Assembly: GCA_964601305.1 (NCBI GenBank)
Contig: CAZRMW010000001.1
Span: forward strand, 34,376-98,375
Reading direction: 5' to 3'
Length of the DNA stretch: 64,000 bases
Source: an uncultured Candidatus Saccharibacteria bacterium
GTDB taxonomy: Bacteria; Patescibacteriota; Minisyncoccia; JAHISW01; Tagabacteraceae
Shown here: one piece after another, positions 2,974 to 64,000 of the stretch
Layout: each line of letters opens with the position of its first letter
Position numbering within the stretch: position 1 is the stretch's first letter
Translations under genes and position numbers: made by a program
The notes under the pieces: model-generated
Databases searched by the model: none
What the model saw: the letters and a program-made list of their open reading frames with translations, nothing else
What the model was told of the DNA's origin: nothing

Positions 2974-2992
2974 AGTGCCCAAAAAATTTACA

Positions 2993-3030
2993 ACACTCCA
3001 ACATTCTCAAGAATGTTGGAGTGTTTTTTT
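2993..3030. terminator. 32-bp palindrome ACACTCCAACATTCT..AGAATGTTGGAGTGT plus T-run; member of a repeated palindrome family (see 7401..7434)
   Basis: Perfect inverted repeat between convergent genes, followed by TTTTTTT. Confidence 0.6.
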
Positions 3031-3042: not shown

Positions 3043-6000
3043 CTAAAACAACCCCTCCGGCGATGTGGTAGCTGTGTTTTCTATCCATTCAATAAGAGTT
3101 GCGGTGATAGCCGAAAGACCATCTCCAAGTACGCCGAGTAAATTGTTTTCAAAAGTAACATTACTTAAACTCGTCGTAGAATTTTCTACTACAACAGCTG
3201 CCTTCGTACCCCACGGCCCACTGTAGTTATGCTCTTCAAATCTCGCATTTTCTATACTCACATTTTCAGAATTTACAGCACGAATCCCATGAGGATAATT
3301 ATTTTTAAATAAAGCATTTGCTATCTGCGCTGTAGACCCTTCTAGCAAAATACCCGCTTTGTCTCTTCCTCCAGACATTACGCTCCCCGCATACTTCATA
3401 GTAAATCCACTTGCCACAAGAGATCCAGTTTCGGAAATATTTATCCCAGCAAACTGCCCAGCTTGAGGCATCGTAGATGTTTCATCGTTGTTAGAATCCC
3501 CACTTATCTCATCGTCATAAATACTTGTAAAAATTATGTCACTCGGATTCTGTCCATCTATTACAAAATTTCCGTTTACATTTAATGTTTTCTCTCCACC
3601 CTTTATTACCACTCCGTTTTCAATAGTTAATTGCGAAGATTCTACTACCGTCGGAGTCTCATATCCATTTAAATAATAAGGTATATCATTTGATTTTAAA
3701 GTTTTTGTTGAATTAGTATTAGTTAAATTTCCCCAAATATTAATGGAGTTGGGATTGTTATTTGACCCACTGTTTCCAGAAAAACTTCCCAGCTCTCCCG
3801 AGGAATAAATTGCACCTCCAGAATTAGAAGTAAAAGTATTGTTATTTGCGATTGTATTTGAATTGCTTAAATAAAGTCCTCTTAAATTTTCTAAAAAAGT
3901 ATTATTGTTTATTGTCGGCTCTCCATTTTCTGTGTATACACCATCAGCCTCATTGCCCTCAAAAACAGAGTTTGCAATTTGCGAATTAGAATTTTTTAAT
4001 CTCAAACCATAAACTTTTGAATATTTAAAACTGGAATTAGATACAGATATTTCTGGCCCCCAAGAGACAAGCAATGATTTATCAAAAGAGTTGTTATAAT
4101 ATTTTCCACCATAGCTAAAATTAGTATATTCAAAAATAGATCCATTTTCTGCATTTTCGTTTATGCAAATACCAAACCAATCTCCAGGATTAGGATTTTC
4201 TTGAGCACTCGTAAAAGCTATTGGCTCACTCTCTGTGCCTTGTGCCAAGATTTTTCCCAGAATATTAAACCCCGAATCTCCATTAAACTTAATTTCAACT
4301 CCAGGCTCTACGGTTAATAAAACTCCACTTTCAACAACTGCGTTTATATTGTCCACCAACACTGGATTGTTTAGTCTTCTTATTGTTAAATTTCTATCTA
4401 TATTTTTATTTATAGTTAGTATGCTATTTACACTATTTGCAAATTTCGGAGTACCTTTGTTTCCTAAAAAATCATTGTTTGTGTACCAGTTTTCTGTATC
4501 GTATCTTTCCATTGTATATTTATCTGTATCTCCTGCAGGCCACGCCCCCTCTGGTGTACTATCTATTGTTGTAGTAGCTGTCGAAGTAGCTTGCACCAAA
4601 ACTAATCTCTCTCCACTATTACTAAGCCCATTTCCAAAAGACCCTATATAATCTGCTTCCACATCTGGCACTGAGGTATCGTCCGTTCTTTCTATCAAAT
4701 AATACTCGCCCGACCCAAGAGTACCTGACAAATTTATATATGGTCCGTTGTCTGTTTCTGAAAAAAGTACCCAGCCATCCAAATCTATTCCGTTTTCTGT
4801 ATTATTAAAAAGTTCTATCCATTCATCGTAAGCCGAGTTGTCCGTACCCGCCCATGCGATTTCGTTTATTAAAATCGAATGCTCTGCAAAAACTTCTTCA
4901 GGTGTTTCAGGTGTCGTGCTTGCTGTTTCTGGTGTAGTCGTAGCAACTTCTGAAGTTGAATCTTCCTCTGGAAGTTCAACCTCGCTAATTGAGTCGTCTT
5001 CTATAACAGGCGCCTCCTGAGGATTGTTTGGGGAAGAAACACTTTTTGTTGCAACAACTATCGAGGTCGAACCTCTATAGCGAGGTTCAACCTCACTAAT
5101 TAAGTTGTTGTCTTTTGTGTCCGCCATTGTTTCCACAACTGCAAAAACAGCAGAAACCGCAGTATATTCTTTTTCCTGTTTTTGTGTAGCCCTTTGATTT
5201 GCTTGTTTTTCATCTTTTTCAAAGGTTGAATCTTTATCTTGAAAATTTAGCTTTGAAGTTGTACTTCCTTCAGGAAGTCCAACTTCGTTAATTAAATCAT
5301 TCGTTTGATCTTTTTTTTCTTTGTCAAAAACATCTTTAATTTTGTTGCCAACATTTTTTATTGCTCCCCAAAACCTTGAGCCACTACCCGGTAAAAAATC
5401 TTCTGCAATTGTTATGAGCGCTGTTTTAGGCACAGGCGGTTTTTCTAGTAACGATTCGTCGTTTCGAGCCTTCTCTACTTCTTGAAAGAATAAATTAATT
5501 GCCCCTGCCACGGATATGACTGCCTCACGAGATAAACGGTTCCAGTAGCCCTGGAGGATCGGTTTGTAATCTTCATTGTCGTCCTCCAACTCATACTCTG
5601 CCAACTTCTTTTCACCGTCTTTGTCCCATACCTCCTTTGTTCTTGCCAATTTAAAATAACTTCCATCTTTATCAACACCAAAGCCATATTCATCTCCATC
5701 TATTATTTCTGGCTTATTATACCTTTCATAGCCCTCGCCATTTGCAGTATCTTTACTTAAAAAATAATTATTAGAATAATTTGCTAAATAATCAAAATAT
5801 TCTTCTATGCTCTCAAGAGAAGCTGGCTCATAACTATTTAAGCTATCCGCAATTTTAAAATTTTCTATATTAAATTGTTTTGAAAAATTTTCAAGGGGGC
5901 TATCTCCAGGGTGTGGGTCATTTCTGGTGTGTTCTGGCACGGCCATATCTTCTAGTAAATGCAGAGTAAATCCAAGAGTATAAAACGCGTCTTTTTCATT

Positions 6001-6948: not shown

Positions 6949-7096
6949 AAATCTTGTCCGCCTCCGGCGGATTAATTAATAAAAACCTAGCAAGTATTAA
7001 CACAGTATGTCAACACCCGTCACTAATAATTTTATATTTCAATGTTCTAACCATTCCTCACACCCCACACAAAACATTCTAACATTCTATAGAATA

Positions 7097-7375
7097 TTAG
7101 AATGTTTTTATAAACTTCACAAATTTTTTACCATAAGGAGAAAGAAAATGCTCCACAGACCTACCTTTGTATTTTTTGTTTACAAGTCCAGCGAGCGTCA
7201 AACGCCTAGAATGCTGAGAGGCTGTTTTCATATGGCAATTAAGTTCATCTGAAATTTGATCTACCGTGATCCCTTCATTTTTATGAACCAAAAGCAATAT
7301 ATCAATCCTCCAATGATTAGCAGCGCCTTTAAAATGTCTTTCTAGTTGTTTTGATGTTTTTACTCTATTTTTCAT
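7097..7375 (-). CDS. winged-HTH transcriptional regulator (ArsR/SmtB-like)
   Basis: 92 aa; HTH segment ITVDQISDELNCHMKTASQHSRRLTLAGLV; flanked on both sides by related palindromes. Confidence 0.6.
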   Translation of the reverse strand: MKNRVKTSKQLERHFKGAANHWRIDILLLVHKNEGITVDQISDELNCHMKTASQHSRRLTLAGLVNKKYKGRSVEHFLSPYGKKFVKFIKTF

Positions 7376-7400
7376 GTTTTCATCCTACCACATCATATAA

Positions 7401-7434
7401 AATACTCCAACATTCTATAGAATGTTGGAGTATT
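7401..7434. promoter_or_regulatory. perfect 34-bp palindrome AATACTCCAACATTCTA|TAGAATGTTGGAGTATT, 26 nt upstream of the ArsR-like gene (candidate operator and/or terminator of the upstream gene)
   Basis: Perfect inverted repeat; near-identical to 2993..3024, with a degenerate nested copy at 7074..7106 overlapping the regulator stop codon. Confidence 0.45.
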
Positions 7435-7500
7435 TTAATTTGTTTAATCTGCGAAAAACAAAAAGCCGGTGGTAAAACCACCGACCCTATAATATATTTT

Positions 7501-13393: not shown

Positions 13394-13440
13394 AAGCTTA
13401 TTATATCACAAATTCAAACACTTTTGGTATATCTACACCA

Positions 13441-13467
13441 AAATAACGGAGTTGAACTCCGTTATTT
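13441..13467. terminator. palindromic hairpin AAATAACGGAGTTGAACTCCGTTATTT (repeated at 17431..17458)
   Basis: Perfect inverted repeat plus T-run downstream of the 13477..14673 gene; second copy 4 kb away. Confidence 0.5.
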
Positions 13468-13476
13468 TCTGTTATT

Positions 13477-17395: not shown

Positions 17396-17430
17396 TATAG
17401 CAGATGTCGTGTTCCATTTTTAAAATAACA

Positions 17431-17548
17431 AAATAACGGAGTTCAACTCCGTTATTTTAAATATTAGCTAATATGGTGAAAATCACCAGAGATTTCACCA
17501 TATTAAACAAAAAACCGCCAGGCCTTTTCAGGTTCTGGTGGTTTAAAT
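17431..17548. repeat. composite of three hairpins: AAATAACGGAGTTCAACTCCGTTATTT palindrome, conserved 54-nt ATATGGTGAAA hairpin, and terminator
   Basis: Repeat copies of 13441..13467 and 16583..16636; T-runs on both strands. Confidence 0.45.
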
Positions 17549-18141: not shown

Positions 18142-18179
18142 TTAAAATCAGCGAGACTAGCGAGGTTCAACCTCACTAG

Positions 18180-19199
18180 TTAATTTGTTAACTCCGGCTG
18201 ATAAAACTTATTTAATTTTGTTTTTAATTGTTTTACTGCAACTATTTCATTGTCTAACAAATACACCTTTAAAACTAATCCCCGCATAGTCTCCTCTGAA
18301 AAATTTTGATCGAAGATAAAATTACCCAAACTATACGCTATCACCCCTCCATTATAACTTTCTATTTCTTGCACAACATGCGGATGGTGCCCTACTACTA
18401 TCTTCGCCCCATTATCTATTGCTGTCCTAGCTAAATATTTTTGTCTTTCATTAGATTTGTTTTTATATTCCTCACCAAAATGAAAAGACACAACAAGAAC
18501 ATCTACACCTCTACTTGCACGCTTTATAATATCTTCAAAATTATTTTTTATAGATAAAATTCCTGAACTATCAGCACCCGCCAAAAACCAATCCGCCCCT
18601 ACATCAGAAAACCCAACAAAACCAATTTTAACTCCGTCTCTTTCTAATATTTTTACAGCACTAGCATCTTCAAAATCCATCCCTCCTCCAACAGGCAAGA
18701 TCCCTTTGTTTTTTAACCTAAAAATATTTTCCTCAAACGCTTCCTTCCCCCAATCTGCAATATGGTTATTAGCAACAGACAGCACATCGAACCCAGCTTC
18801 ATAAAGTACATTGAGCACATCCGGATTAAACTTAAAAGAATAGACACTTCCAACATCTTTACCCGCAAGAGAAATTGGTCCCTCTAGATTTCCAAAAGCA
18901 ATGTCGGCCTCTTTTAAAAAATCAACATTGTTAAAAAGAAAAGAAAAATCACCATTAAAATTTTTAGATATTGACTCTTCTACTCCCCTGCTAAGCATAA
19001 TATCACCAACAAAAACAAGTTCCACACTTTTTGTGTTTTTAAGAGTAGCGGTATTGTTTTTGTTTGAAAAATAAAAAAACGAAGACGAACCAGACACCCT
19101 ATTAAAATCACCTAAAAAATAAAAAACACTCATTGGAACAAAAAAACCCAACAACAACACAAAAGCCCCCCAAACTATTTCTTTATTTTTTATTTCCAT
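18180..19199 (-). CDS. CapA-family metallophosphoesterase (poly-gamma-glutamate/capsule biosynthesis-type)
   Basis: VGDIMLSRGV, LSVANNHIADWG and GHHPHVVQ metallophosphatase motifs typical of CapA/PGA_cap; N-terminal TM. Confidence 0.8.
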   Translation of the reverse strand: MEIKNKEIVWGAFVLLLGFFVPMSVFYFLGDFNRVSGSSSFFYFSNKNNTATLKNTKSVELVFVGDIMLSRGVEESISKNFNGDFSFLFNNVDFLKEADIAFGNLEGPISLAGKDVGSVYSFKFNPDVLNVLYEAGFDVLSVANNHIADWGKEAFEENIFRLKNKGILPVGGGMDFEDASAVKILERDGVKIGFVGFSDVGADWFLAGADSSGILSIKNNFEDIIKRASRGVDVLVVSFHFGEEYKNKSNERQKYLARTAIDNGAKIVVGHHPHVVQEIESYNGGVIAYSLGNFIFDQNFSEETMRGLVLKVYLLDNEIVAVKQLKTKLNKFYQPELTN

Positions 19200-21336: not shown

Positions 21337-22002
21337 CTACTTTAAATTTAAGTATTTTTTATATACGCCAGCAAGATGGTCCTCTCCGCTCCAACCTACT
21401 TTGTTTTTCCATTCTTCTGTCCACCCAGAATCGTACACCCCATGTACTACATTTTCAAAATATTCTTTGAATGCATAAAGATTTAAAGCACAACCAAAAA
21501 CATCACCCAAAGGATATCCAAGAAATATACCCATAGCTAAGTGGAATTCTTCACCACTTCTTGCACCTTTAGCTATCTTAAAAAATTCTTCCAAAATTTT
21601 CTGAGAGAAACCAATTGCTAAAGAAACCAAACCGTCCATTGTTCTTTTTTCTTTTGTCTTAATGCTCATTTTTCTCAGAAATTCTCTCTGGTAAAGAGTA
21701 GAACTAGAAGAAGAAAAATACGTAATTGGTTTACAATAAGCCACGGCAAGTGCAGATTGATAAGGCAAAATTGTTTTTTCCCATTCCAAATCTACACTAT
21801 CACTTATTATTTCTTTGTCTTTTTTACCAATCTGTCTTGTGTTAGGACAATTTTTGTTAACATAATCAAATAAACCATCAATACTTTCCCAGCTCAAATA
21901 ATCTAGAGTAATTAAGTTTTTTTGTTTTTGCGATAGTTGTTCAAAATATTCCGTGGGTTTTATGCCAAAGTTCCATGGCTGATTTTCAGAAAATCTTATC
22001 AT
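21337..22002 (-). CDS. hypothetical protein
   Basis: 221-aa ORF with no recognisable motif; bracketed by the 40-bp direct repeats. Confidence 0.45.
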   Translation of the reverse strand: MIRFSENQPWNFGIKPTEYFEQLSQKQKNLITLDYLSWESIDGLFDYVNKNCPNTRQIGKKDKEIISDSVDLEWEKTILPYQSALAVAYCKPITYFSSSSSTLYQREFLRKMSIKTKEKRTMDGLVSLAIGFSQKILEEFFKIAKGARSGEEFHLAMGIFLGYPLGDVFGCALNLYAFKEYFENVVHGVYDSGWTEEWKNKVGWSGEDHLAGVYKKYLNLK

Positions 22003-22399
22003 TTTTCATTCCTTTTTGTGTTGTTATGTTGTGAAAGTCCGAATAGCTTCCATAAAAAAACTACCATTAAAATATATATTTTGTCAAATTACTGTACTAG
22101 AAGGGTACATAAATAACACTTATCGCTACACCGAAGACCGTCTTCGATGTAAATTACATAGACACCATTTCTTTTATTTTCATCAAATCAGCCACAGACC
22201 AACTTTTTAAAAATTTTTCATACTCTCTTTTGCTTTTAAATTGATCTAAAATAATATCTGTTCCAGAAAGTATCCAATCTTCATAATCTTTGTATAGAAA
22301 ATGTTTGATTCTACATCGACATCGGGTGTCGACGCAAGTGGTTTTTGCAAAATAAAAAGCCACCCTGTCGCCAGAGTGGCCATATAAACCAAAAACTTA

Positions 22400-23110
22400 C
22401 TATATACACATTCCTGCAAATCTTATGGATATATAGTTTGCGGTTTCGGCTAAAAGCATCGTTAGATATCTTTGAACAAAAACGGCATTCATCTCGAAAA
22501 AAACTTTTTTAGGATTTAAATCAAGACAATAAAAATACAAACAATATCTATCGCCTTCTTTTCTCACCAAACAATAAAGCATTGGGACAGAATTTTCTTC
22601 AAAAATGTTTTCCCCTATTCCCATACTTTTTAAATTCATACAAAACAAAGCCTCTTCTTCCCCAAAAAGAATTGGTTTAAAACCGAGTTTATAAAAAAAA
22701 TCCCCTGTTTTCAAAATAGATTCTTCAAAAATCTGACCGAAAAAATGATAAGCGAGACGCACATTGCCATCCAAAAGAATTTGAAGTTTTTTAGAATAAA
22801 TCAAGTTTAAATCATCTGTTACTGTTCGAAGAATGTTTGGAGATTCTTCCATACTTCTTCCAAGCAAAAATAATGCAATTTCTGTACCTGTGTTAGCAAG
22901 GTTTCTCTTGATTCTTGCTGTCATCCAAAAACCTTCTTCAGGCAACAAAAATATGTGTCCGGTTCTAATTTTAAAAATTTCTTCCATCCGCTCACCCACA
23001 TATCCTTTTGAGGAACCTGCAGTACCAGCTATCACAGACATCGGCATCCTATATACAAAACCTTCTTCTACCTCTTCTGCTCCCTTCAAATTAATCGGCT
23101 CCAACATCAT
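22400..23110 (-). CDS. hypothetical protein
   Basis: 236-aa ORF, no recognisable motif. Confidence 0.45.
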   Translation of the reverse strand: MMLEPINLKGAEEVEEGFVYRMPMSVIAGTAGSSKGYVGERMEEIFKIRTGHIFLLPEEGFWMTARIKRNLANTGTEIALFLLGRSMEESPNILRTVTDDLNLIYSKKLQILLDGNVRLAYHFFGQIFEESILKTGDFFYKLGFKPILFGEEEALFCMNLKSMGIGENIFEENSVPMLYCLVRKEGDRYCLYFYCLDLNPKKVFFEMNAVFVQRYLTMLLAETANYISIRFAGMCI

Positions 23111-23211: not shown

Positions 23212-24324
23212 TTGACAAAAGTTTTTAGTTGCATACAATATAATGCAATGTCTACTGAACATATTTTTGCAAATGCACTAAACCAATCTCTTCAAATTGG
23301 CCCTGCCAGCCTTAATAAAATAAAAAAATATTTTGGAAGTTTTGAAAATGGCTGGAAAGCTCCAATAAGTACACTACTAAAAATTACAGAACTAAAAAAA
23401 CTAGACGAATTTAGAGGAGAAATAGACCCAGAGAAAGAAATGGAAATTTTAGAAAAAGAGGGAGTGCAAGTTTTATTAAAAGAAGATTTACCAAAAAATC
23501 TGCAAGAAATTTTTACCCCTCCAGAAGTGCTATATATAAAAGGTAGCTTGCCTGCTTCGCCGGCAGGCGGGCCAAAAGAAACACTCCCCCACCTAGCTGT
23601 GGTTGGTCCTAGAAAATTTTCTTCTTATGGTAAAGAGGCTTGCGAAAAAATAGTTAGTGAGCTAAAAGACTATAGCGCAGTAATAGTAAGTGGGCTCGCG
23701 CTGGGTATAGATACTATTGCACACAAAACAGCCTTAGAAAACAACATGCAAACCATTGCAGTTTTGGGTAGCGGCTTTAATGATAATGTTTTATTCCCAC
23801 AACAAAACAAAAAACTAGCAAACAAAATTATAGAAAACGGAGGTTGTCTAATTTCAGAGTATCCTCTAGATATGAGGGCTGCGCCCTACACATTTCCGCA
23901 AAGAAATAGAATAGCCGCAGGGCTTTGTGAGGGCACACTTGTTGTAGAAGCACCACAAAAAAGTGGGGCTCTTATTACCGCAAATTTGGCACTAGAAAAC
24001 AACCGAGAAGTTTTTGCTATCCCAGGAGGAATTTTTCAAGCAAACTCTAAGGGCACAAATAATTTAATAAAACAAGGCGCCACGCCTATTACAAATGCAG
24101 AAGATATATTAAATTCTCTGGGGGTTGAATTAAAAATAAAAAGTGATAGTATCGATTTATCTCAAGAGGAAAAAGAAATTATTTCTTTAATTTATGAACC
24201 GCTTGCTCGAGATGAACTTATAAGAAACTCCAAAATGCCACCTCAGGAAATTAATCCACTCTTAATTCAAATGGAAATAAAAGGTATTATAAAAGAGATT
24301 GATGGCAAAATTTACCCCGCCTAA
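23212..24324 (+). CDS. dprA: DNA processing protein A (DprA/Smf), Rossmann domain plus C-terminal wHTH-like
   Basis: LAVVGPRKFSSYGKEA...VSGLALGIDTIAHKTAL...EYPLDMRAAPYTFPQRNRIAAGL...EAPQKSGALITA: canonical DprA motifs. TTG start at 23212 (alternative ATG 23248); conserved dprA-topA adjacency. Confidence 0.85.
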   Translation: MTKVFSCIQYNAMSTEHIFANALNQSLQIGPASLNKIKKYFGSFENGWKAPISTLLKITELKKLDEFRGEIDPEKEMEILEKEGVQVLLKEDLPKNLQEIFTPPEVLYIKGSLPASPAGGPKETLPHLAVVGPRKFSSYGKEACEKIVSELKDYSAVIVSGLALGIDTIAHKTALENNMQTIAVLGSGFNDNVLFPQQNKKLANKIIENGGCLISEYPLDMRAAPYTFPQRNRIAAGLCEGTLVVEAPQKSGALITANLALENNREVFAIPGGIFQANSKGTNNLIKQGATPITNAEDILNSLGVELKIKSDSIDLSQEEKEIISLIYEPLARDELIRNSKMPPQEINPLLIQMEIKGIIKEIDGKIYPA

Positions 24325-26501: not shown

Positions 26502-27611
26502 TTAAAGAGTAAATTTATCTAACCAGCTTTTCATACTAGATTCTTCTGTTCTAACAATTGTAGGAATATCATCTACTTTTTCTTCATTCTCTTTTATCTC
26601 GTCTCCCACCTTTTCCTTTTCTTGCTCTGGTTCTTGCTCGGAACTTAGACTGTCTTTTTCTTGAGGTTGAACCTCCTTTGGCGGTTCAACCTCGCTAATT
26701 GAATCCGTCGTCGTTAGAATCTCTTCAATCTCCCCTGTTTCTTGAGGCACAGTACCTTCAGCAACAACAGCAGCACCTACTTTCATTAAAAAGTTTTTTA
26801 GATCATCCTCAGAGAAAAACTCCATAGAAATTTTTTTAACAGGTCCCTTTTTCTCAACAGAAACTCTTGTTCCCAGAGCATCTGAAAGTTTTCTTTCCAA
26901 ATTGCCTGCTTCTGGATCTTCTCTTCTCTCCAACTTTATTTTAGCCTTAGTTTTATTTTTAAGAATTTCACGCGCGAGATGCTCTGTAGCCCTCACATTC
27001 ATTTTTCTAAAAATAATTTCTTTGTATAATTCTTTCTGATCATCTTCGTGCTTTATTAAACTTAAAAGTGGCCTCGTGTGCCCTTCTCTAATAAGCCCTG
27101 CTTTTAGCCCTTCTTGCATATCTTCCGGCAAGCTCAAAAGTCGAATAGTGTTTGAAACAAATTCTCTACTCTTACCTACTTTTAGGCCAACTTCATGATG
27201 GCGCATTTTAAAATTGTCCACCAATTGCTTAAAAGCTACAGCTCTTTCTATTGGACTTAAGTCTTCTCTTTGTATATTTTCTATTAAAGCAAGTTCTAAT
27301 TTTACTTGATCTGAAGGTTCTTCTCTAATAATTACTGGCACTTGAGTAAGCCCCGCAATTTGAGACGCACGCCACCTTCTTTCTCCTGCAATAATTTCAT
27401 ATTCTATTATAGTGCCTGTTGGCACTTCTTTTTCTCGACGGATAACTACAAGTGGCTGCAAAACGCCGTATTGCCGAATAGATTCTGAAAGCTCGTTTAG
27501 CTTGTCTTCATTAAAAATACTACGAGGCTGAAAAGTATTTGGCTTTATTTTGTCTACTTCAACAAAAAAAACCCCGCTTTCTTTTCTTATTCTTGGAAGT
27601 TCGTTGTTCAT
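26502..27611 (-). CDS. parB: ParB/Spo0J partition protein with acidic low-complexity C-terminal tail
   Basis: GERRWRASQIAGLTQVPVIIRE ParB box; start at MNNELP (27611); tail region contains an inserted palindromic element (TDSISEVEPPKEVQPQ). Confidence 0.85.
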   Translation of the reverse strand: MNNELPRIRKESGVFFVEVDKIKPNTFQPRSIFNEDKLNELSESIRQYGVLQPLVVIRREKEVPTGTIIEYEIIAGERRWRASQIAGLTQVPVIIREEPSDQVKLELALIENIQREDLSPIERAVAFKQLVDNFKMRHHEVGLKVGKSREFVSNTIRLLSLPEDMQEGLKAGLIREGHTRPLLSLIKHEDDQKELYKEIIFRKMNVRATEHLAREILKNKTKAKIKLERREDPEAGNLERKLSDALGTRVSVEKKGPVKKISMEFFSEDDLKNFLMKVGAAVVAEGTVPQETGEIEEILTTTDSISEVEPPKEVQPQEKDSLSSEQEPEQEKEKVGDEIKENEEKVDDIPTIVRTEESSMKSWLDKFTL

Positions 27612-27667
27612 TGATTTTATTATACAAAAATTGACCAAACGAGGCAAATTTTATATTATAAATTTAG

Positions 27668-29629: not shown

Positions 29630-29660
29630 AAAGCCCTTGCCTTATTGGCAAAGGGTTTTT
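29629..29660. terminator. terminator hairpin AAGCCCTTGCC-ttatt-GGCAAAGGG plus T-run
   Basis: GC stem plus TTTTT immediately after the stop of 29312..29629. Confidence 0.5.
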
Positions 29661-29674
29661 ATTATACAAATACA

Positions 29675-31750
29675 ATGAAATATTATATTTTTACATTTGG
29701 GTGTGGCGCCAACCACGCTGACAGTGAAAGAATCGCCAGAAAATTGAAAGCCCTCGGCCACAAAAAAGCAGTTTCTTCCAAAGAGGCTAGTTTAATAGTG
29801 CTCAATGCCTGCTCTGTTAGAAAATCTGCTATAGATAGAGTTTATGGCAAAGTAAAAAATCTAAAAAACAAGCAAATTATACTAGCAGGCTGTCTCCTTG
29901 ATTCAGATAGAAAAAAATTAGAAAAAAAAGTAAAAGCTATTTGGCATCCAGACGAATATTTCGATTTATCCCCCATAAACGAAACTTCTTTTCGTGCGCT
30001 TATACCAATCACAAAAGGTTGTAATAATTTTTGTTCGTACTGTGCTGTGCCCTACACACGAGGAAAAGAAAAATCTCGCCCAGCAAAAGACATAATCAAT
30101 GAAATTAAAGAATTAATAAAAAATAATTATAAAGAAATATGGCTGTTGGGACAAAATGTAAATAGCTATAAATCTGGGAAAACAAATTTTCCAAAACTTC
30201 TTCAGAAAATAAACAAGATTGAAGGTAATTTTTGGATAAAATTTACTTCCCCTCACCCAAAGGATTTCTCCAACGAATTAATACAAACTATAAAAAAATG
30301 TGAAAAGGTTACCAACTACATAAACCTGCCTGTTCAATCTGGGGACAATGAAATTTTGAAGAAAATGAATCGAAAATATACACGCCAGCACTACATTAAG
30401 CTTGTAAACAAAATTAAAAAAGCTATTCCAGATGTAGCAATTTCTACAGATACTATCGTAGGATTCCCTGGAGAAACACGCACTCAATTTAAAAACACTC
30501 TAGATTTGTACAAAAAAATTAAATTCGATATGGCTTTTATTTCACAATACTCCCCTCGCACAGGCACCGTATCCGCACGAACTATGAAAGACAACATAAA
30601 ACACATAAAAAAAGAAAAGCGCGACAAAGAGCTTACAAAAGTATTAGCCAAATATTCGCTCGAGAAAAATAAAAAATTAGTTGGGCAAACTATAAAAGTT
30701 TTAATTGACTCACAAAAAGACACTAATTTTTTTGGCCGCACAGAAGGCAACAAAATAGTTAAAATAAATAAAACTGATTCTATAAGTATAGGAAAATTTG
30801 TAGATATAAAAATAACAAAAGCTACCTCTTGGAAGCTGGAGGGAGAAATCGCTCCTACAAAAATTATAGTAGTTTTGGGCCCCACAAGCTCTGGAAAAAG
30901 CGACTTAGCTGTAGATATAGCTCTTCAATTCCCTTCTGAAATTATTTCTGCAGATTCTAGGCAAGTTTATAAACACATACCTATCGGTACAGGGGCTATA
31001 ACCAAAAAAGAAATGAAGGGTATTTCCCATCATTTGCTAGGTTTTGTAAATCCCAAAAAAACATATACTGCAATAGATTTTAAAAAAGATGCAGAAAAAG
31101 CTATAAAAGAAATTCTAAACAAAAACAAAATACCAATAATATGTGGTGGCACAGGGTTTTATATACAAACACTTTTAAGTGGCAATAATTTACCAAAAGT
31201 AAAACCAAACTGGCCTCTTAGAAAAAAAATGGAGAAAAAAACAGCAGGCCAACTTTTTAAACAACTTCAAAAGCTCGACCCCAAACGCGCTAAAAACATA
31301 GATTCAAAAAACAAGCGGCGTTTAATTCGTGCTATCGAGATTGCTATCAAATTAACGAAGTCGGACTTCGATAGTTCACTACCGAAATCCGACTTCAATA
31401 GTTGGGATGTGCTGTATTTAGGTATAGAAAGAAAAAGTGGTAATTTAGAAAAACTTATCAGAAAAAGAATTTTGGGACTTATAAAAAGAGGGCTTTTGGC
31501 AGAAGTAAAAAATTTAAGAAAGAAAAAAGTCTCCTGGAAAAGAATAGACGAACTAGGTTTTGAGTATAAATACCCAGCTCAATATATCCGCGAAGAAATA
31601 AATAAAGAAGAAATGGTAGAAAAAATACTTACAGGAAATAATAAGTACGCAAAAAGACAGATGACTTGGTTTTTAAAATATACCCCAAAGACAATTTGGG
31701 TAAAAAATTCTAAGGAAGCTATGAAATTATCTAAAAAATTTTTAGACTAA
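29675..31750 (+). CDS. miaB-miaA: fusion protein: MiaB-like radical-SAM methylthiotransferase (MTTase-N, radical SAM, TRAM) fused to MiaA tRNA dimethylallyltransferase
   Basis: Start MKYYIFTFGCGANHADSE (MTTase N-terminus Cys), LNACSVR, AGC, CNNFCSYCAVP radical SAM, TRAM region; then IIVVLGPTSSGKSDLAVDIAL (P-loop), ISADSRQVYKHIPIGT, HHLLGF = MiaA. Single continuous 692-aa ORF. Confidence 0.8.
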   Translation: MKYYIFTFGCGANHADSERIARKLKALGHKKAVSSKEASLIVLNACSVRKSAIDRVYGKVKNLKNKQIILAGCLLDSDRKKLEKKVKAIWHPDEYFDLSPINETSFRALIPITKGCNNFCSYCAVPYTRGKEKSRPAKDIINEIKELIKNNYKEIWLLGQNVNSYKSGKTNFPKLLQKINKIEGNFWIKFTSPHPKDFSNELIQTIKKCEKVTNYINLPVQSGDNEILKKMNRKYTRQHYIKLVNKIKKAIPDVAISTDTIVGFPGETRTQFKNTLDLYKKIKFDMAFISQYSPRTGTVSARTMKDNIKHIKKEKRDKELTKVLAKYSLEKNKKLVGQTIKVLIDSQKDTNFFGRTEGNKIVKINKTDSISIGKFVDIKITKATSWKLEGEIAPTKIIVVLGPTSSGKSDLAVDIALQFPSEIISADSRQVYKHIPIGTGAITKKEMKGISHHLLGFVNPKKTYTAIDFKKDAEKAIKEILNKNKIPIICGGTGFYIQTLLSGNNLPKVKPNWPLRKKMEKKTAGQLFKQLQKLDPKRAKNIDSKNKRRLIRAIEIAIKLTKSDFDSSLPKSDFNSWDVLYLGIERKSGNLEKLIRKRILGLIKRGLLAEVKNLRKKKVSWKRIDELGFEYKYPAQYIREEINKEEMVEKILTGNNKYAKRQMTWFLKYTPKTIWVKNSKEAMKLSKKFLD

Positions 31751-37620: not shown

Positions 37621-38883
37621 CTACAAGTTTTTTGGTCTTTCGTCAAGTTTTATGGCTACATTCACCTCCTCTCCGTCTCGTAAAATTTTAATAGGAATTT
37701 CTTGCCCAACACGAGAATTATTTATAAGTTCACTCAAAATATTGTCTTTATTTAATTTTTTTCCATTAAACTCTAAAACAATATCTCCTTCTTTTAATCC
37801 TGCTTTTTCTGCTGGACTATCCTTCATTATAGCTGATTGTCCGTCCATCCCTCTTTCTAAAACTACTCCTTCTCCCTCCTCAACCAAATTGTATCTAACT
37901 CCCAAATAAGCAAAACGAACTTCTCCAAACTCTCTCACATCTGCCAAATTTTTCTTAGTTATATTTATAGGCAATGCAAAACCAACATTTTCTGCTTCTT
38001 GAGCTACTGCAGTATTTATGCCAACAACTTGCCCGTTTAAATTCAAAAGTGGCCCACCAGAGTTTCCATGATTTATAGCTGAATCGGTTTGGATAATTTT
38101 TTGCAGTGGCACAATTTCCCCAGTAGAACTTTGGGCTGCAATCTCTCTGTTTAATCCTGATATTATTCCAACAGAAACAGAATTTTGAAACTTTCCCAAA
38201 GTATTTCCAATAGCAACTACTGTTTGACCAGCTTTTATTTTATCTGAATTTGCAAAAGGGATATAATTAAATTTTTTATCTTTGTCTTCTTCAGGCCTGT
38301 CTGCCGGCGAGGCAGGCAAAACAACTTTTAGTATCGCTATATCTTGATATTGATCTCTGGCTAAAACATCTACAGAAAGTTTATCTCCATTTTTTAATAT
38401 AATTGAATACCTTGCGTCTTTATCAGCTACCACATGTTTGTTTGTTAATAAATATCCGTCGTTTGAAACAAAAAACCCAGTGGCAGTAGATACTTCTACG
38501 GCTTCTGTGCCATTTTGCCTATATTGTGGTACTTGTATTTCTGGAAAAAAACTATACGGATTTATGAAATATTTTTCTATTACTGGAATGTCTTTTGTGG
38601 CTACAACACTAACAACTGCAGGGGAGTATTTTTCTACCAAATTCACCACCAAGTCTTCCTGACTAACAGCGCTCAAAACATTTGCTTGTCCAATATTAAC
38701 ATTACCAGTACTACCAGGGGAAACAGTTTCTATCGTTTTTTCTATAACCTTACTTACAGTTTGAGTAATCGGAGAAGGAGCCTGTGTAACTAAAGTAGCA
38801 GTAACTATGCCTGTAAAAACAGAGGTTACAAAGGTAACTAAAAGAACCAATAATATAAATTGTGGTCTTGTAAGATCTTCCAT
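37621..38883 (-). CDS. HtrA/DegP-family serine protease with C-terminal PDZ, N-terminal TM anchor
   Basis: GNSGGPLLNLNGQVVGINTA (catalytic Ser), TNKHVV (His region), PDZ segment GLKEGDIVLEFNG. Confidence 0.85.
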   Translation of the reverse strand: MEDLTRPQFILLVLLVTFVTSVFTGIVTATLVTQAPSPITQTVSKVIEKTIETVSPGSTGNVNIGQANVLSAVSQEDLVVNLVEKYSPAVVSVVATKDIPVIEKYFINPYSFFPEIQVPQYRQNGTEAVEVSTATGFFVSNDGYLLTNKHVVADKDARYSIILKNGDKLSVDVLARDQYQDIAILKVVLPASPADRPEEDKDKKFNYIPFANSDKIKAGQTVVAIGNTLGKFQNSVSVGIISGLNREIAAQSSTGEIVPLQKIIQTDSAINHGNSGGPLLNLNGQVVGINTAVAQEAENVGFALPINITKKNLADVREFGEVRFAYLGVRYNLVEEGEGVVLERGMDGQSAIMKDSPAEKAGLKEGDIVLEFNGKKLNKDNILSELINNSRVGQEIPIKILRDGEEVNVAIKLDERPKNL

Positions 38884-39507: not shown

Positions 39508-40725
39508 TTATCTCACAGAAGAAATTCCTTTTAATTTTAAAATAATATCTGGCAAAATTTTTAATACATAGTCTACTTCTTTTTTTGTAGTCTCTTTGCC
39601 CATCGTAAATCTAAGCGAACCATGAGCATATTCATGTCCCATACCAATCGCACGTATCACGTGTGAAGGCTCCAAACTATCCGAAGTACACGCCGAGCCC
39701 GTAGAGCAAGCCACGCCCTTAGCATCAAGATATAGCACCATTGCTTCTCCCTCCACACCACGTACAGATATATTTACATTATTAGGAAGCCTATCTTCTC
39801 TTGAACCATTTAAAACACTGTTTGGTATCGTTTTTAATAATTTATCTATAAAATAATCCCTAATTCCAATAAGTCTTTTTGATTCTTTTTCTTTATTTTT
39901 TTGAACTAATTCAAGCGCTTCTCCAAAACCCACAATTCCAGATACATTTTCCGTACCAGACCTTAAGCCCATTTCTTGCCCACCGCCTACGACCATCGGA
40001 TCTATTTTAATTCCTCTTTTTTTATAGAGCATTCCTACACCCTTTGGCCCATATATTTTAGAACCATTTAAAGTCATTAAGTCTACACCCAATTTCAAAA
40101 CATTTAGATCCAAATAAGCCGGTGCTTGCACAGCATCTGTATGTATCAGTGGAGTTTGCAGGTTGTAGGTTGTAGGTTGTAGGCTTTTTTTGAAATTTCT
40201 GATTATTTTTGCGATTTCACGAATTGGCTGTATAGCACCAATTTCATTGTTTGCATACATTATAGAAACCAAAACAGTCTCTTTTCTTAAAGATTCCTTT
40301 AATTGTTTCAAATCTACAATGCCATTTTTATCTACATTTAAATAAGTAATTTCCCAGCCACTTTTTTCTAATCTTTCACAAGCATGAAGCACAGCGTGAT
40401 GCTCTATTTTTGACGTAATAATATGCTTGACACCCTCTCTGTTGGAAGTCGGACTTCCAACAGAATTGGCTATGCCGAAAATTGCTAAATTATCACTCTC
40501 TGTGCCACCGCCAGTAAAAATAATCTCGTCTGAATGGGCGTTTATTGTCTGTGCCACTTTTAATCTAGCCTCCGAAATTGCTTTTTTGGCTTCCCTGCCT
40601 TCTTCATAAATAGAAGATGGATTGCCAAAAACATCGCTAAAAAACGACTCCATTGCTTTTTTAACTTTTGGATCTAAATATGTGGTAGCTGAATGATCTA
40701 AATATATCCTTTTATCTTTATTCAT
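39508..40725 (-). CDS. iscS: cysteine desulfurase (class V aminotransferase, IscS/NifS)
   Basis: YLDHSATT, LNGSKIYGPKGVGMLY (PLP-Lys), SGSACTS (catalytic Cys loop); start at MNKDKRIY (40725). The upstream 33 codons of the track ORF are a repeat element. Confidence 0.85.
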   Translation of the reverse strand: MNKDKRIYLDHSATTYLDPKVKKAMESFFSDVFGNPSSIYEEGREAKKAISEARLKVAQTINAHSDEIIFTGGGTESDNLAIFGIANSVGSPTSNREGVKHIITSKIEHHAVLHACERLEKSGWEITYLNVDKNGIVDLKQLKESLRKETVLVSIMYANNEIGAIQPIREIAKIIRNFKKSLQPTTYNLQTPLIHTDAVQAPAYLDLNVLKLGVDLMTLNGSKIYGPKGVGMLYKKRGIKIDPMVVGGGQEMGLRSGTENVSGIVGFGEALELVQKNKEKESKRLIGIRDYFIDKLLKTIPNSVLNGSREDRLPNNVNISVRGVEGEAMVLYLDAKGVACSTGSACTSDSLEPSHVIRAIGMGHEYAHGSLRFTMGKETTKKEVDYVLKILPDIILKLKGISSVR

Positions 40726-40761
40726 AAAAAAATTATACGATTTTTTTGCATTATTGGCAAA

Positions 40762-40790
40762 CAAAAAAGCCCTGTGCAAGCAGAGCTTTT
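40762..40790. terminator. hairpin AAAAAAGC-cctgtgcaagcag-AGCTTTTT
   Basis: A/T-flanked stem between iscS start region and the end of the thioredoxin-fold gene. Confidence 0.35.
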
Positions 40791-40816
40791 TGAGTAAGTT
40801 TGAGCGAGGTCCAACC

Positions 40817-41410
40817 TCACTCATTTAAAATTTTGTCGATTAGAGCGGCCGTTTTATCGACAGTTTTAACCGGATTATTATAAAAATTATACCGCACAAC
40901 CCCCTTTTTGTCGACAATGACAAGGTGGGGCCAACCTCCTAACCCATACGAAGCTGTCGCCTTTATAACTCCAGACCCATGTTGTTTTTTGCTAACAATC
41001 AAGACCGTCGATAAAAAAGGTCCAAACTTTGTCTTAAACCCTTCAAACTCTTGAGGGTTTTTTGATGTCCACGGCACGCCCACAACTTTCACATCCTCGC
41101 GCGACTCATACTTTTCCGCCAGTTTATTCAGAACTTTGACCTGCTCACGGCAGAGAGGCGCACCAGGTCACCAGAAAGCCAAAACAGTAACACTCCCTTT
41201 AGAAAACTCGGAGAATTTCACATTGTCTCCGGTATCAATATTGGTTGCCGTAAAATCCGGCGCCATTTTGTCCACTGCGGAATTTGTTTCAACAACAACC
41301 ACCGGAGTGTCCTCTTCCACGGAAGTATTGAAGGCACCTGCTGTGCCAACAAAAAGAAGTGAGAAAATCGCCATCGCCAGAATCGTTAGAGTTAAAAGTC
41401 TCGTTTTCAT
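40817..41410 (-). pseudogene. disrupted thioredoxin-fold (TlpA/AhpC-TSA-like) secreted protein gene, GC-rich
   Basis: N-terminal part (signal peptide ...APDFTATNIDTGDNVKFSEFSKGSVTVLAFW) stops at an in-frame TGA exactly where the redox motif is expected (FW-TGA-PGAPLCREQ). C-terminal part (VKVVGVPW...GWPHLVIVDKKGVV) is in another ORF. GC content clearly above its neighbours. Confidence 0.5.
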
Positions 41411-58019: not shown

Positions 58020-58626
58020 AATTTTTTGTCTCTTTGCTTAAATAAAGATACCCTCCAACAATAGACACTAACAATATCCCCAAAACCAACCAGACATAAA
58101 CTATTTTGTTTTTTGAAATTTCAAAATCTTGCCTAAACTCATCTAAAACATCTACATTGTACAAAGTTTGTAATTCAAGAGTATATTTTCCAGACGGAAA
58201 TTTTAAGTTATTAAAATTTTTAGTAAAAACCCTCTCGGTTTCCACCACTAAATAATCTTGTTCCATATGGATTTCTTTTCCAGAACTATCCAAAATACTA
58301 AATAATAAATTCACTGGTGTTGGCTCTGTACCAAAACTTGTAAATATAACTCTGACCGACAAATCCTCGATACTATCAACTGTCTTGTCGTCAGTTTCAA
58401 AATTAATGTCAAATAAATATTTGGTTGAGTCTTTTTTTTCTAAAGCAATTTCCACACGACCTTCTTCTGTTTTACGCTTTTTTACAATTTCGATGCCCCC
58501 ATTGTCGTGTTTTATATTTGGATAAAAACCTATCACTAGCAAAATAGACACAAAAGACACTAGTAGCAATGGCAACGAAAAAACAAAAAACTTTTTTAAC
58601 ACATTCTCACTTTTTCTTCGTTCCAT
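57997..58626 (-). CDS. surface protein carrying the conserved 'LFDIN...TLYNV' module plus C-terminal TM anchor
   Basis: Module shared with 58607..59602 and 60424..61614. Confidence 0.5.
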   Translation of the reverse strand: MERRKSENVLKKFFVFSLPLLLVSFVSILLVIGFYPNIKHDNGGIEIVKKRKTEEGRVEIALEKKDSTKYLFDINFETDDKTVDSIEDLSVRVIFTSFGTEPTPVNLLFSILDSSGKEIHMEQDYLVVETERVFTKNFNNLKFPSGKYTLELQTLYNVDVLDEFRQDFEISKNKIVYVWLVLGILLVSIVGGYLYLSKETKNYANQITQ

Positions 58627-59602: not shown

Positions 59603-59614
59603 AATTCTTTTTTA

Positions 59615-60094: not shown

Positions 60095-60423
60095 AATAAA
60101 AATACAGCTAAACCTTCTAATAATAAAAATTAGATAGATTTAACTGCGCAAAGTTATAAACTGTTCAATTGTTACCGTAATTATACACCGTTCACATCTA
60201 TTTGCAAACCATGCAAGAAGTATTTATTTAAAATCTTTTATAGCAATAGTCTTCCCTCTTGATTTTACTACCACCCTTTGTTTTTCTCTGAACTTTAATT
60301 TTTTGATAATCTCAATAGGCAAAGTTGCCGTCATACTACTACATTTTAACTTCCAGTACTCAGCTTTCAGACTTAACCAAATATTTTTGTCTGTCTACTG
60401 ACGGCTGGTAGCTGTTTACTTAT

Positions 60424-63005: not shown

Positions 63006-64000
63006 TTATATTGTTTCTGGAGTTGTTGTAGAAACTGGTTCCTCAACAACATGCTCTTCGTATTCGCAACTTAGATCATCTTCTGTTGCGCTTTCATCGT
63101 GATTTAAGGCATCTGGATCCATACAGCCCAAAATCAGCTCGGGTTCTTGCTCCTGAATTAATTCAGCCTGCCCCGTTAAATCCGTAGGATTCTTCGGGGT
63201 ATTTAATTCAGTAGCAGTAGTCGTGGAGGTCGTTCCTTCAATTAACGAAGTTGGACTTCCCACATCCTGCGGTGTGTGAACTCCAACTTCAACAATTCTT
63301 GTTGTTGTCCCTACATTCCCCGCTTGATCTTCAGCAATAAAAGTAATTACATAAGTAGTTGTGCTAGAAGTATCTAAGCTTAATTCGTTCGGATACATCT
63401 CTTCTCCACCATCAATGCTTACTTTATACCCAAGGTTGTCGTTTACATTGTCTGTTACTGTTGCCCCCATATCGCTATATGTGCTACCTACTTCTATTTT
63501 TGCAGGGTTATTTCCAAGGAGAATTATGATTGGAGACTCAACGTCAACACTGTCTGTATTTTCATTGATTATTGATTCATTAGATATTGATTGATCATTG
63601 ATTGTTGAAGATTGATCATTTTTAAGCATTCCCTTCAACTCTGCCAATTCCTCTTTATTCAAACAAACTTCTCCACCCTCTTCCCCAATACATATTTCTT
63701 CTCTAGCCAAAATTCTATTAGCTACAAAAGCTCCGTTTAATTCTTGATTTGTTATAAATTCTTCCACTGATCCACCAAGAGAAAGCGAGTTTAATTCATT
63801 TTGAAGAACTTCTATCATCTCCTGTTGCTCTTTTATAGCCTCTAAGTTAAGGGCTGTTAATTTTTGATAATCTATCATCTTATATCCTTGCATATCCTCA
63901 TAAACCAATTCTGGGAAAAGCACTTCCACTTCCTGGGCAATCAAACCTGTTTGGCGACCATCCCCTAAAAATTCTGTGTGAGAATTTGTTTTATCCCATT
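63006..64000 (-). CDS. surface protein (5' end outside window) containing a phage tail-fibre/endosialidase-type intramolecular chaperone (peptidase S74-like) segment followed by a DUF5011/Ig-like domain
   Basis: GLIAQEVEVLFPELVYEDMQGYKMIDYQKLTALNLEAIKEQQEMIEVLQNEL matches the S74 chaperone helices; PIIILLGNNPAKIEVGSTYSDMGATVTDNVNDNLGYKV...AEDQAGNVGTTTRIVEV is DUF5011-like. The reading frame stays open upstream of the track's start to the window edge. Confidence 0.5.
   Translation of the reverse strand, partial: WDKTNSHTEFLGDGRQTGLIAQEVEVLFPELVYEDMQGYKMIDYQKLTALNLEAIKEQQEMIEVLQNELNSLSLGGSVEEFITNQELNGAFVANRILAREEICIGEEGGEVCLNKEELAELKGMLKNDQSSTINDQSISNESIINENTDSVDVESPIIILLGNNPAKIEVGSTYSDMGATVTDNVNDNLGYKVSIDGGEEMYPNELSLDTSSTTTYVITFIAEDQAGNVGTTTRIVEVGVHTPQDVGSPTSLIEGTTSTTTATELNTPKNPTDLTGQAELIQEQEPELILGCMDPDALNHDESATEDDLSCEYEEHVVEEPVSTTTPETI

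Follow-up and report, generated by a model that had tools for sequence, protein, structure and literature searches.

A Probable REP/REPIN-Type Palindromic Element in Frame in the miaB-miaA Fusion Gene of a CPR/Patescibacteria Genome

A Palindrome Pair in the miaA Part of miaB-miaA

The miaB-miaA gene of this genome, a housekeeping gene, carries a REP/REPIN-type element in frame in its miaA part. This 54-nt feature is probably a REP doublet (REPIN-like) of a repeat family common to CPR/Patescibacteria genomes, and it is located in the variable loop that links the RAIEI helix to the LYLGI strand of MiaA. The four Pfam domains listed for the host gene in Table 1 fall on one called gene, which is therefore a MiaB-MiaA fusion. 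As read from the window (the whole 64-kb stretch of DNA analysed), the first unit is AATTAACGAAGTCGGACTTCGATAG at 31350-31374 and the second is CCGAAATCCGACTTCAATAG at 31382-31401; both are contained in the fusion ORF, with the surrounding translation ...KLTKSDFDSSLPKSDFNSW... and the peptide TKSDFDSSLPKSDFNS encoded by the doublet. A palindromic repeat with distant matches had been described in the MiaA half by an earlier, sequence-only reading, and the sequence is as described there. The matches that it placed at 63241-63260 and 5273-5298 are present one base away, at 63240-63259 (+) and 5274-5293 (-), where both read AATTAACGAAGTTGGACTTC and are identical to 31350-31369 at 19 of 20 positions.

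The same reading took the units for a tandem palindromic pair. Two copies do exist, the second being degenerate, but they are inverted and do not form a direct tandem, since the centre base, an established orientation marker for REP doublets (PMC3337134), is G in unit 1 and C in unit 2. This arrangement matches the geometry of a REPIN (REP doublet). In folding calculations the pair forms one long hairpin, both as RNA (-24.3 kcal/mol, z = -4.85) and as a DNA hairpin (-12.6 kcal/mol, z = -3.96). The sequence downstream of the miaA copy is AATAGTTGGGATG, which has no T run, unlike that of an intrinsic terminator, where a run of T residues comes after the G+C-rich stem. No Rfam family matched the element region, the only matches in the whole window being three tRNAs.

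The Repeat Family across the Window

At least 11 loci of the family were found in the 64 kb of this genome covered by the counts (about one locus per 6 kb), with approximately none expected by chance. The sequence AATTARYGARGTYGRACYTC, allowing up to two mismatches, gave nine matches and none in 100 shuffles, and the 13-nt core, at the same tolerance, gave 13 matches against a mean of 0.56 expected. The unit is thus over-represented within the window, and its general form is about 23 nt long, TA-NN-GARGTY-N-RACYTC-NN-TA. Six doublets are present; in five the centre base is clearly G in the first unit and C in the second, as in an inverted pair, and the remaining one is ambiguous. Coordinates and contexts are given in Table 1.

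Table 1. Host gene and predicted members of the repeat family in the window. E-values refer to the covariance model.
Feature	Position	Strand	Context and details
Host gene, miaB-miaA fusion ORF, 701 aa	29645..31750	+	Pfam UPF0004, Radical_SAM, TRAM, IPPT
Probable REP doublet (REPIN-like) in MiaA loop	31347..31402	+	Basis: sequence, covariance-model match, folding
Unit 1 core of miaA doublet	31357-31369		GAAGTCgGACTTC; perfect 7-bp-arm palindrome CGAAGTCGGACTTCG
Unit 2 core of miaA doublet	31384-31396		GAAATCcGACTTC; degenerate
REP doublet c2	5251..5298	-	Within 1133-aa ORF 3043-6444 (-); peptide LINEVGLPEGSTTSK
REP doublet c3	5059..5106	-	1133-aa ORF 3043-6444 (-); peptide LISEVEPRYRGSTSIV; model match 5072-5104, E = 1.2e-5
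REP doublet c4	4948..4995	-	1133-aa ORF 3043-6444 (-); peptide SISEVELPEEDSTSEV
REP doublet c5	26658..26705	-	C-terminal tail of ParB-like ORF 26502-27647 (-); peptide SISEVEPPKEVQPQE
REP doublet c7	63240..63290	+	Antisense in ORF 63006-63944 (-); peptide VGVHTPQDVGSPTSLIEG
Long palindromic REP singlet, 13-bp arms, TCTGTTGGAAGTCgGACTTCCAACAGA	40438..40464	.	In NifS/IscS-like ORF 39508-40824 (-); core encodes GSPTS
REP singlet c8	40796..40828	-	Junction of ORF 40817-41092 and NifS-like gene; extragenic or stop-codon overlap; E = 1.1e-4
REP singlet c6	18152..18184	-	Directly after stop of ORF 18180-19199 (-); E = 7.4e-5
REP-like singlet (A and T runs), AAAATAACGGAGTTGAACTCCGTTATTTT	13438..13470	+	Terminator-like, between ORFs; E = 4.3e-6
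Second terminator-like REP singlet	17428..17460	-	E = 2.4e-6

Unrelated genes host the copies, which run in both orientations and are read in three different frames. Long ORFs contain seven of the 11 loci, and the other four are non-coding; of eight oriented copies, six (c1-c6) follow the sense of their gene, one (c8) sits at a gene junction on the same strand, and one (c7) runs antisense. Three unrelated genes share one 20-mer, of which the non-palindromic flank AATTAAC is a part. In MiaA and NifS the residues flanking the copies align with those of orthologues, and the NifS core adds 5/6 aa relative to solved cysteine desulfurases and 1 aa relative to the orthologue of L039, the closest relative. 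A resemblance at the protein level, in which a short peptide motif would recur in several proteins, could be read from four copies that translate alike (xISEVEPx). However, the same DNA is translated as KSDF in MiaA, as EVGLP/EVEP in two other proteins, and as GSPTS in two more, one copy being antisense and four loci non-coding, and this scarcely credible explanation already stands refuted, since the copies are read in three frames and run both ways.

From copy to copy, the two arms change together (GAAGT/ACTTC, GAGGT/ACCTC, GGAGT/ACTCC), which fits a hairpin and not a fixed protein site. This covariation bears on the proposal that the palindrome is bound by a dimeric protein, one organising the chromosome for instance, or serves as a DNA uptake signal, in a gene that is merely tolerant. 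The symmetry of the core runs through its central base (6+1+6), as would be expected of a dimer site, the window contains DprA and ParB genes, and the known natural competence of CPR bacteria (PMC10633639) fits an uptake signal. However, DNA uptake sequences have a fixed, non-palindromic core at about one per kb, whereas here the core varies with compensating arms and about 11 loci occur in 64 kb. No canonical parS with up to two mismatches was found in the window, so nothing ties the element to ParB, and the association with RAYT-like genes described below is left unaccounted for, making a protein-binding or uptake site very improbable.

An exact scan of the 20-mer against 185,579 species representatives, a set that does not include the source organism, returned 36 single matches and no genome with several.

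Association with RAYT-Like Transposase Genes

Six other CPR genomes carry the same hairpins on the flanks of, and often inside, a gene for a Y1/HUH transposase, as seen in the contig stretches, at most 20 kb long, that surround each transposase gene. The association was first met by accident in three carriers of hairpin clusters (L011, L035, and L037), which were among the matches of the DNA-only 20-mer scan described above and encode the same protein with hairpins on its flanks. As an independent test of this association, three further homologues were chosen by protein only (L122, L123, and L124), and all are flanked by such hairpins: in L122, AATTTATCGAAGTCCGACTTCGATAAATT, with the same core as the miaA copy, lies on both sides of the gene, and L123 has 2+2 hairpin copies in inverted orientation. 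The inverted-doublet layout also occurs at L013, L061, L079, and L010. The transposase scores 23.5 bits against Pfam Y1_Tnp, barely above the cut-off of 23, and its sole NCBIfam match is NF047646, REP-associated tyrosine transposase (E = 7e-8 to 1e-11), with scores of 32-45 bits that are below the curated 80-bit cut-off. Direct inspection of the sequence revealed an HUH-like MPNHYHLIL and a GRYK motif. The transposase, which has more than 7,800 homologues, usually has a hairpin inside its own gene, at about residues 58-65; most of 120 homologues examined translate it as xEVEPRY or RGSTSI. The 64-kb window itself contains no RAYT-like gene.

A covariance model was built only from 12 hairpins at four RAYT-like genes of other genomes, and its best match in the whole window is the miaA copy (31347-31379, 37 bits, E = 3.9e-8); five other window loci match at E ~1e-4 or better. 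The stem of the model shows compensatory changes with 97% of cells paired, and none of 500 shuffles attained the observed covariation score. The flank TA, two bases outside the core, is invariant (TTAAY, TAGY, TATC). The conserved tetranucleotide GTAG or CGTC that is found at the foot of REP hairpins (PMC3733652) is absent.

Two inverted units form one long hairpin, which, by analogy with the REPIN-RAYT systems of Proteobacteria, a Y1/HUH (IS200-like, RAYT-like) enzyme would cut and paste as single-stranded DNA. In this genome, copies are found after stop codons, where some are terminator-like, and in frame in weakly constrained protein stretches, namely the MiaA loop, a NifS loop, the ParB tail, and the linkers of two large proteins.

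Comparison with Known Systems

The REP/REPIN-RAYT systems of Proteobacteria (E. coli, Pseudomonas; PMC3116915, PMC3337134, PMC5581495) share with the present family short, repeated palindromic units, inverted pairs folding into a long hairpin, the presence of these units on both sides of a Y1/HUH transposase gene (here in other CPR genomes), long symmetric singlets, and some terminator-like copies with A and T runs. In contrast to them, the unit is shorter, palindromic through its centre, and bordered by the invariant TA without GTAG/CGTC, the transposase gene usually has its own internal hairpin and scores under the NCBIfam equivalog cut-off, and the hosts are CPR bacteria. By definition REP elements are extragenic, and nearly all work on them concerns Proteobacteria, whereas most copies in the window (7/11) lie in ORFs, in frame. 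The IS200/IS605 insertion sequences and their palindrome-associated derivatives likewise encode a Y1 HUH transposase (Pfam Y1_Tnp), and subterminal hairpins lie to either side of its gene; the dispersed copies here, however, are bare hairpins without the gene, and the best NCBIfam match is of the REP-associated type. The stem followed by a T run of intrinsic terminators is seen only at the two terminator-like singlets (13440 and 17430), both situated after genes. Unlike terminators, which share no sequence across genomes, the family is found in several, and the miaA copy is inside an ORF.

These observations suggest that the tiny, gene-dense CPR genomes carry a system related to REPIN-RAYT, with copies pushed into the remaining tolerant places such as surface loops and linkers. 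It is possible, if doubtful, that CPR/Patescibacteria own a REPIN-RAYT system whose hairpins lie routinely in coding sequence, including essential genes and the transposase gene itself, where the cognate hairpin would occupy a fixed codon position. If so, the repeat could derive from the coding sequence of the transposase, or the enzyme could control its own gene via the internal hairpin, and protein loops such as that of MiaA would be targeted sites, beyond mere tolerance. Such a system would give a traceable source for the short insertions behind the odd look of CPR proteins, and would offer a strain-typing marker as well as naturally permissive positions in essential enzymes; the hairpin inside the transposase gene would be a testable lead on the control of domesticated transposases. 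In the literature library searched, no paper was found that connects REPIN/RAYT with CPR bacteria.

The Element Fills a Flexible Loop of MiaA

The element fills a flexible surface loop of MiaA rather than adding 15-19 residues to it, as the sequence-only reading had claimed. The reading frame is unbroken across the element, and the conserved MiaA motifs resume afterwards. In HMMER alignments, the element segment aligns without gaps to E. coli MiaA (2zm5) and yeast Mod5 (3eph), and with short, offsetting gaps only to 3d3q and 2qgn, so that the loop has the length of that in solved MiaA structures. A segment of equivalent length in canonical MiaA, which that reading had itself named as the observation speaking against an insertion, is therefore formally present. 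This equality is not decisive, because CPR MiaA loops are shorter: counted from the RAIE glutamate to the LGI glycine, the loop has 27 residues here, a median of 23 in 80 CPR orthologues, and 22 in L039. The net gain is thus 4 residues over the CPR median and 5 over L039, for a doublet that spans about 16 codons. With a gain of only 4-5 aa for a 54-nt element, an extra deletion or overwriting must be assumed; the copy, probably old and partly decayed, would mostly have replaced loop-coding sequence instead of lengthening the loop, with insertion preceding deletion.

The related genomes had been suggested as a source of an uninterrupted allele. The syntenic allele of L039 has no palindrome in its MiaA loop, and among the alleles compared none lacking the element is closer than ~62% identity. 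In the AlphaFold model, pLDDT falls below 50 solely at residues 171-178 (DSSLPKSD), a segment that coincides with the stretch encoded by the element. The effect of the miaA copy on the enzyme is probably small, and the copy may be neutral for MiaA. The proposal that a housekeeping enzyme has tolerated a selfish insertion is upheld insofar as a dispersed, probably selfish repeat lies in frame in a tolerant loop, without the net gain of 15-19 residues.

Rickettsia palindromic elements (RPEs) also lie in frame in housekeeping genes, in tolerant surface parts, and leave the ORF intact. They are about 100-150 bp long and add 30-50 residues. The element here differs from them in its length of 25-55 nt and its net MiaA gain of 4-5 residues, where an RPE is an in-frame insertion adding tens of residues, and no transposase is known to be linked to RPEs. 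The two are not expected to be related in sequence. The MiaA of L079 has a clean +18-aa insertion, twin GGAAGTCSGACTTCC, in a different loop.

Palindromes in the MiaA Loop of Other CPR Genomes

In many CPR orthologues of MiaA, this loop contains long perfect palindromes whose sequences are unrelated and whose presence hardly alters its length; examples are L082 (21-bp arms, its E..G loop exceeding the CPR median by about 3-4 aa) and L047 (16-bp arms). Among perfect palindromes with arms of at least 8 bp in 83 CPR MiaA genes, 16 of 35 fall in this loop, which makes up 7% of the gene (binomial p = 7e-10). The orthologous palindromes of L066 and L074 differ by compensatory changes.

The unrelated sequences, the small change in length, and the compensatory changes would be explained if palindromes arose in place in an unconstrained loop, with template switching at replication copying one arm from the other and keeping the arms identical without any mobile element. 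The locus-specific outer arms of the NifS palindrome agree with such an origin, as does template switching as a documented one-step source of perfect hairpins (bioRxiv 10.1101/2023.04.19.537475). However, an in-place origin does not account for the 20-mer with its AATTAAC flank in three unrelated genes, for the same core around RAYT-like genes elsewhere, or for the match of the miaA copy to a model trained elsewhere (E = 4e-8), and it is unlikely as the explanation of this element. Under the preferred reading as a REP doublet, template switching may still contribute to the extension and upkeep of the arms.

The concentration of palindromes in the loop and the compensatory changes between orthologues would also be expected of a hairpin with a function in the miaA gene or in its mRNA (such as processing, pausing, or a regulatory site), kept as structure and not as sequence. 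In the window, no other 60-nt stretch of the MiaA-coding part is as stable as the MiaA loop. Against this, the loop is among the 10% most stable stretches in only 25 of the 83 orthologues (median rank 0.29), L039 has no hairpin, no Rfam family matches, and the loop sequences are members of repeat families spread over the genome, with further copies in unrelated genes and between genes. A functional structure is accordingly improbable, and a universal hairpin in the MiaA loop was rejected on the same ranking.

A general excess of perfect palindromes in CPR genes was not found (9.3 vs 5.3 per 100 kb in non-CPR control loci), and one third of the CPR perfect palindromes in that comparison are those of MiaA.

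Across CPR, palindromes of many different sequences gather in the MiaA loop, a hot spot that simple random insertion leaves unexplained.

Probable REP Doublets in miaA and Across the Window

The palindromic repeat that the sequence-only reading had observed in miaA was confirmed: the bases quoted for 31350-31374 and 31382-31401 match the window sequence exactly, and the first 20 bases do recur at 63240-63259 (+) and 5274-5293 (-), each with 19/20 identity. The host ORF (29645-31750, + strand, 701 aa) reads RAIEIAIKLTKSDFDSSLPKSDFNSWDVLYLGI across the element, and its product carries UPF0004, Radical_SAM, TRAM, and IPPT domains, identifying a MiaB-MiaA fusion; since the identical protein is present on three independent contigs, an assembly accident is excluded. 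With up to two mismatches, the degenerate 20-mer AATTARYGARGTYGRACYTC was found at nine places in the window and in none of 100 shuffles, and the 13-nt core gave 13 matches against a mean of 0.56 expected.

The REP (short palindromic) unit, GARGTY-N-RACYTC, is a 13-nt palindrome, usually between flanks that are themselves palindromic (TTAAC...GTTAA, TAGY...RCTA, or TATC...GATA). It forms six doublets in the window, where unit 2 follows unit 1 by 6-18 nt, and stands alone at five other loci. In five of the six doublets, unit 1 clearly has G as its centre base and unit 2 has C, so the units are mutually inverted; the miaA copies are not the direct tandem that had been proposed. The miaA pair folds as RNA into one long hairpin (-24.3 kcal/mol, z = -4.85, equalled by no shuffle) and as DNA at -12.6 kcal/mol (z = -3.96). 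A shared peptide motif as the nature of the repeat was ruled out, because the in-gene copies use three reading frames and both orientations, marking the repeat as a DNA-level feature: the miaA copy yields KSDF, those in a 1133-aa protein and a ParB tail xISEVEPx or NEVGLP, and those in NifS and ORF 63006-63944 GSPTS. A 7-bp-arm palindrome, CGAAGACcGTCTTCG (22132-22146), resembling the REP core with its inner triplets swapped, is intergenic between ORFs 21337-22002 and 22400-23110.

Repeat features of the window and RAYT-like genes of other CPR genomes
Feature	Coordinates	Context
Doublet c1	31350-31402	in miaA
Doublet c2	5251-5298	
Doublet c3	5059-5106	
Doublet c4	4948-4995	
Doublet c5	26658-26705	
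Doublet c7	63240-63290	
Singlet	18152-18184	directly after stop codon
Singlet	40796-40828	at gene junction
Singlet	13438-13470	intergenic, A and T runs, flagged by terminator scan
Singlet	17428-17460	intergenic, A and T runs, flagged by terminator scan
Singlet	40438-40464	27-nt perfect palindrome within NifS-like gene
GCCTGC...GCAGGC hairpin	23546-23572	DprA, ORF 23212-24324; peptide GSLPASPAGGPKE
GCCTGC...GCAGGC hairpin	38294-38320	HtrA-like protease, ORF 37621-38883; peptide VVLPASPADRPEE
ACTCCAACATTCTATAGAATGTTGGAGT hairpins	2992-3025, 7071-7108, 7398-7437	
RAYT-like gene, L011	258-959	units 435, 727 inside ORF; 979 just past stop
RAYT-like gene, L035	702-1388	units 614, 669 before gene; 1396 after
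RAYT-like gene, L037	3279-3911 (-)	units 3922, 3716, 3255
Hairpin in RAYT-like gene, L011	435-447	
Hairpin in RAYT-like gene, L037	3716-3728	
Hairpin in RAYT-like gene, L122	10174-10194	
Hairpin in RAYT-like gene, L124	10174-10194	

Association with RAYT-like Genes in Other CPR Genomes

A 20-mer scan in which each species was represented by a single genome returned 36 single matches, about 10 of them in CPR (Patescibacteria) genomes, where a longer, mostly intergenic palindrome, AAATTAAYGARGTYSRACYTCRTTAATTT, has the REP unit at its centre; one (L013) shares the two-hairpin layout of the miaA copy, within an ORF on the opposite strand. The units cluster in three CPR matches (L011, L035, and L037), each time around the same gene. 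The protein it encodes matches Pfam Y1_Tnp (E = 6.6e-5), and in NCBIfam it matches NF047646 alone, the model for REP-associated tyrosine transposase (RAYT), at E = 7e-8 to 1e-11, although below the curated cut-off. It has more than 7,800 homologues, many in Patescibacteria, annotated merely as "transposase". As a prediction test, three further homologues were chosen by protein alone, and hairpins of this type flank all three: AATTTATCGAAGTCCGACTTCGATAAATT, the core of the miaA copy, on both sides of the gene in L122; inverted, with two copies per side, in L123; and units of the GAGGCTCGGCCTC type in L124.

A covariance model was made only from 12 hairpins of four RAYT-like genes and took in nothing from the window. 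Compensatory changes are present in the model stem (97% of cells paired), and 0 of 500 shuffles attained its covariation score. The model's best window match is the first miaA unit (31347-31379; 37 bits, E = 3.9e-8), and five more window loci match at E ~1e-4 or better.

RAYT-like ORFs also hold their own cognate hairpin at a fixed position, around residues 58-65, which in most of 120 listed homologues read xEVEPRY, EVGLR, or RGSTSI; window doublet c3 translates as ISEVEPRY-RGSTSI, the same words. On the Paceibacterota contig L122 (8940-10705), the RAYT-like gene adjoins miaA divergently, which may be coincidence.

In REP/REPIN-RAYT systems, repeats surround one Y1 transposase gene, REPs occur as inverted, hairpin-forming doublets (REPINs), excision of doublets is invoked to account for long symmetric singlets, and some copies have been co-opted as terminators (PMC3337134, PMC5581495). 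The CPR hairpins and Y1 gene resemble this arrangement, with the defining gene-repeat association seen in six CPR genomes. However, they lack the GTAG or CGTC tag, most window copies are intragenic, the CPR transposase scores under the curated threshold, and no cognate transposase gene was found in the window. Rickettsia palindromic elements are similar in their effect on proteins, but the miaA element is much smaller. The miaA feature is likely to be a REP doublet of a RAYT-associated CPR hairpin family; we are less confident that a RAYT mobilises it, since we infer that step. In the literature searched, no paper tied RAYT or REPIN to CPR bacteria.

The MiaA Loop as a Probable Insertion Site

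The 15-19 extra residues previously proposed for MiaA were not found, as solved MiaA proteins have a segment of equal length: in HMMER alignments the segment is gap-free against E. coli 2zm5 and yeast 3eph and shows only short, mutually offsetting gaps against 3d3q and 2qgn, and the domain is as long as stand-alone CPR MiaA proteins. The loop is, however, shorter in CPR MiaA proteins: measured between the E of RAIE and the G of LGI, it has a median of 23 residues in 80 CPR orthologues, 22 residues in L039 (the closest relative, syntenic and likewise a MiaB-MiaA fusion), and 27 in the window. The net gain over CPR relatives is therefore 4-5 residues, whereas the doublet spans ~16 codons, suggesting that part of the ancestral loop would have been overwritten or deleted. 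In the AlphaFold model (mean pLDDT 88.7), the element-encoded stretch sits between the helix ending IAIK and the strand VLYLGI, and midway along it falls the sole segment below 50, residues 171-178 (DSSLPKSD). The broader claim of a repeat in frame inside MiaA, probably a selfish one, holds: the element is a family member in a tolerant, low-pLDDT loop between helix and strand.

Among 83 CPR MiaA genes, 16 of 35 perfect palindromes (arms of at least 8 bp) sit in this loop, although it accounts for just 7% of the gene length (binomial p = 7e-10). They differ widely in sequence between genomes, with arms of 21 bp in L082, 16 in L047, and 14 in L044; the L038 loop holds CGAAGTCGGACTTCG, identical to the window unit, plus a second palindrome, and that of L094 a near copy of another window hairpin family. 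Palindrome-bearing loops are slightly longer (median 24.5 vs 23, p = 0.02). This recurrence reads as that of a very tolerant, possibly preferred, landing site, and the arms may be lengthened and preserved partly through local template switching. A universal MiaA-loop hairpin was rejected: only 25 of the 83 genes have the loop in their top 10% of stretches by stability, and L039 lacks the hairpin. In-gene perfect palindromes showed no general large excess in CPR loci over control loci. Among odd-centred perfect palindromes (arms of at least 7 bp) in L038-L121 and the window, 12 of 70 are centred GTC-N-GAC, where ~1 would be expected if all 64 possible centres were equally likely; many are REP-family units in coding regions.

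Copies in Other Genes and Other Repeats

Two cases support the view that copies do get into genes. MiaA of L079 carries, in a different loop, a clean 18-residue insertion that consists of twin GGAAGTCSGACTTCC units and is missing from all its relatives. In the NifS-like protein of the window, the core GGAAGTCCGACTTCC amounts to exactly five residues, GSPTS, lacking in solved cysteine desulfurases; relative to these, the same protein (ORF 39508-40824, -) has a second insertion at residues ~210-225, SLQPTTYNLQTP, with no obvious palindrome. A twin palindrome, TTGGAAGCCTCGCTTCCAA / TTGGAAGCGAGGCTTCCAA, lies within a pyridine-nucleotide oxidoreductase ORF (L124 18408-18449), in a genome that has GAGGC...GCCTC hairpins on either side of its RAYT.

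A second hairpin family of the window, rich in G+C, has in-frame copies in two more housekeeping genes. A third, with arms up to 19 bp, is the one whose near copy, CCAACATTCTTGAGAATGTTGG (L094 729-750), lies in a MiaA loop. Three diverged direct repeats at 58118-60880 (82-141 nt, 65-82% identity, spacing 613 and ~1830 nt) are probably paralogous domains or genes.
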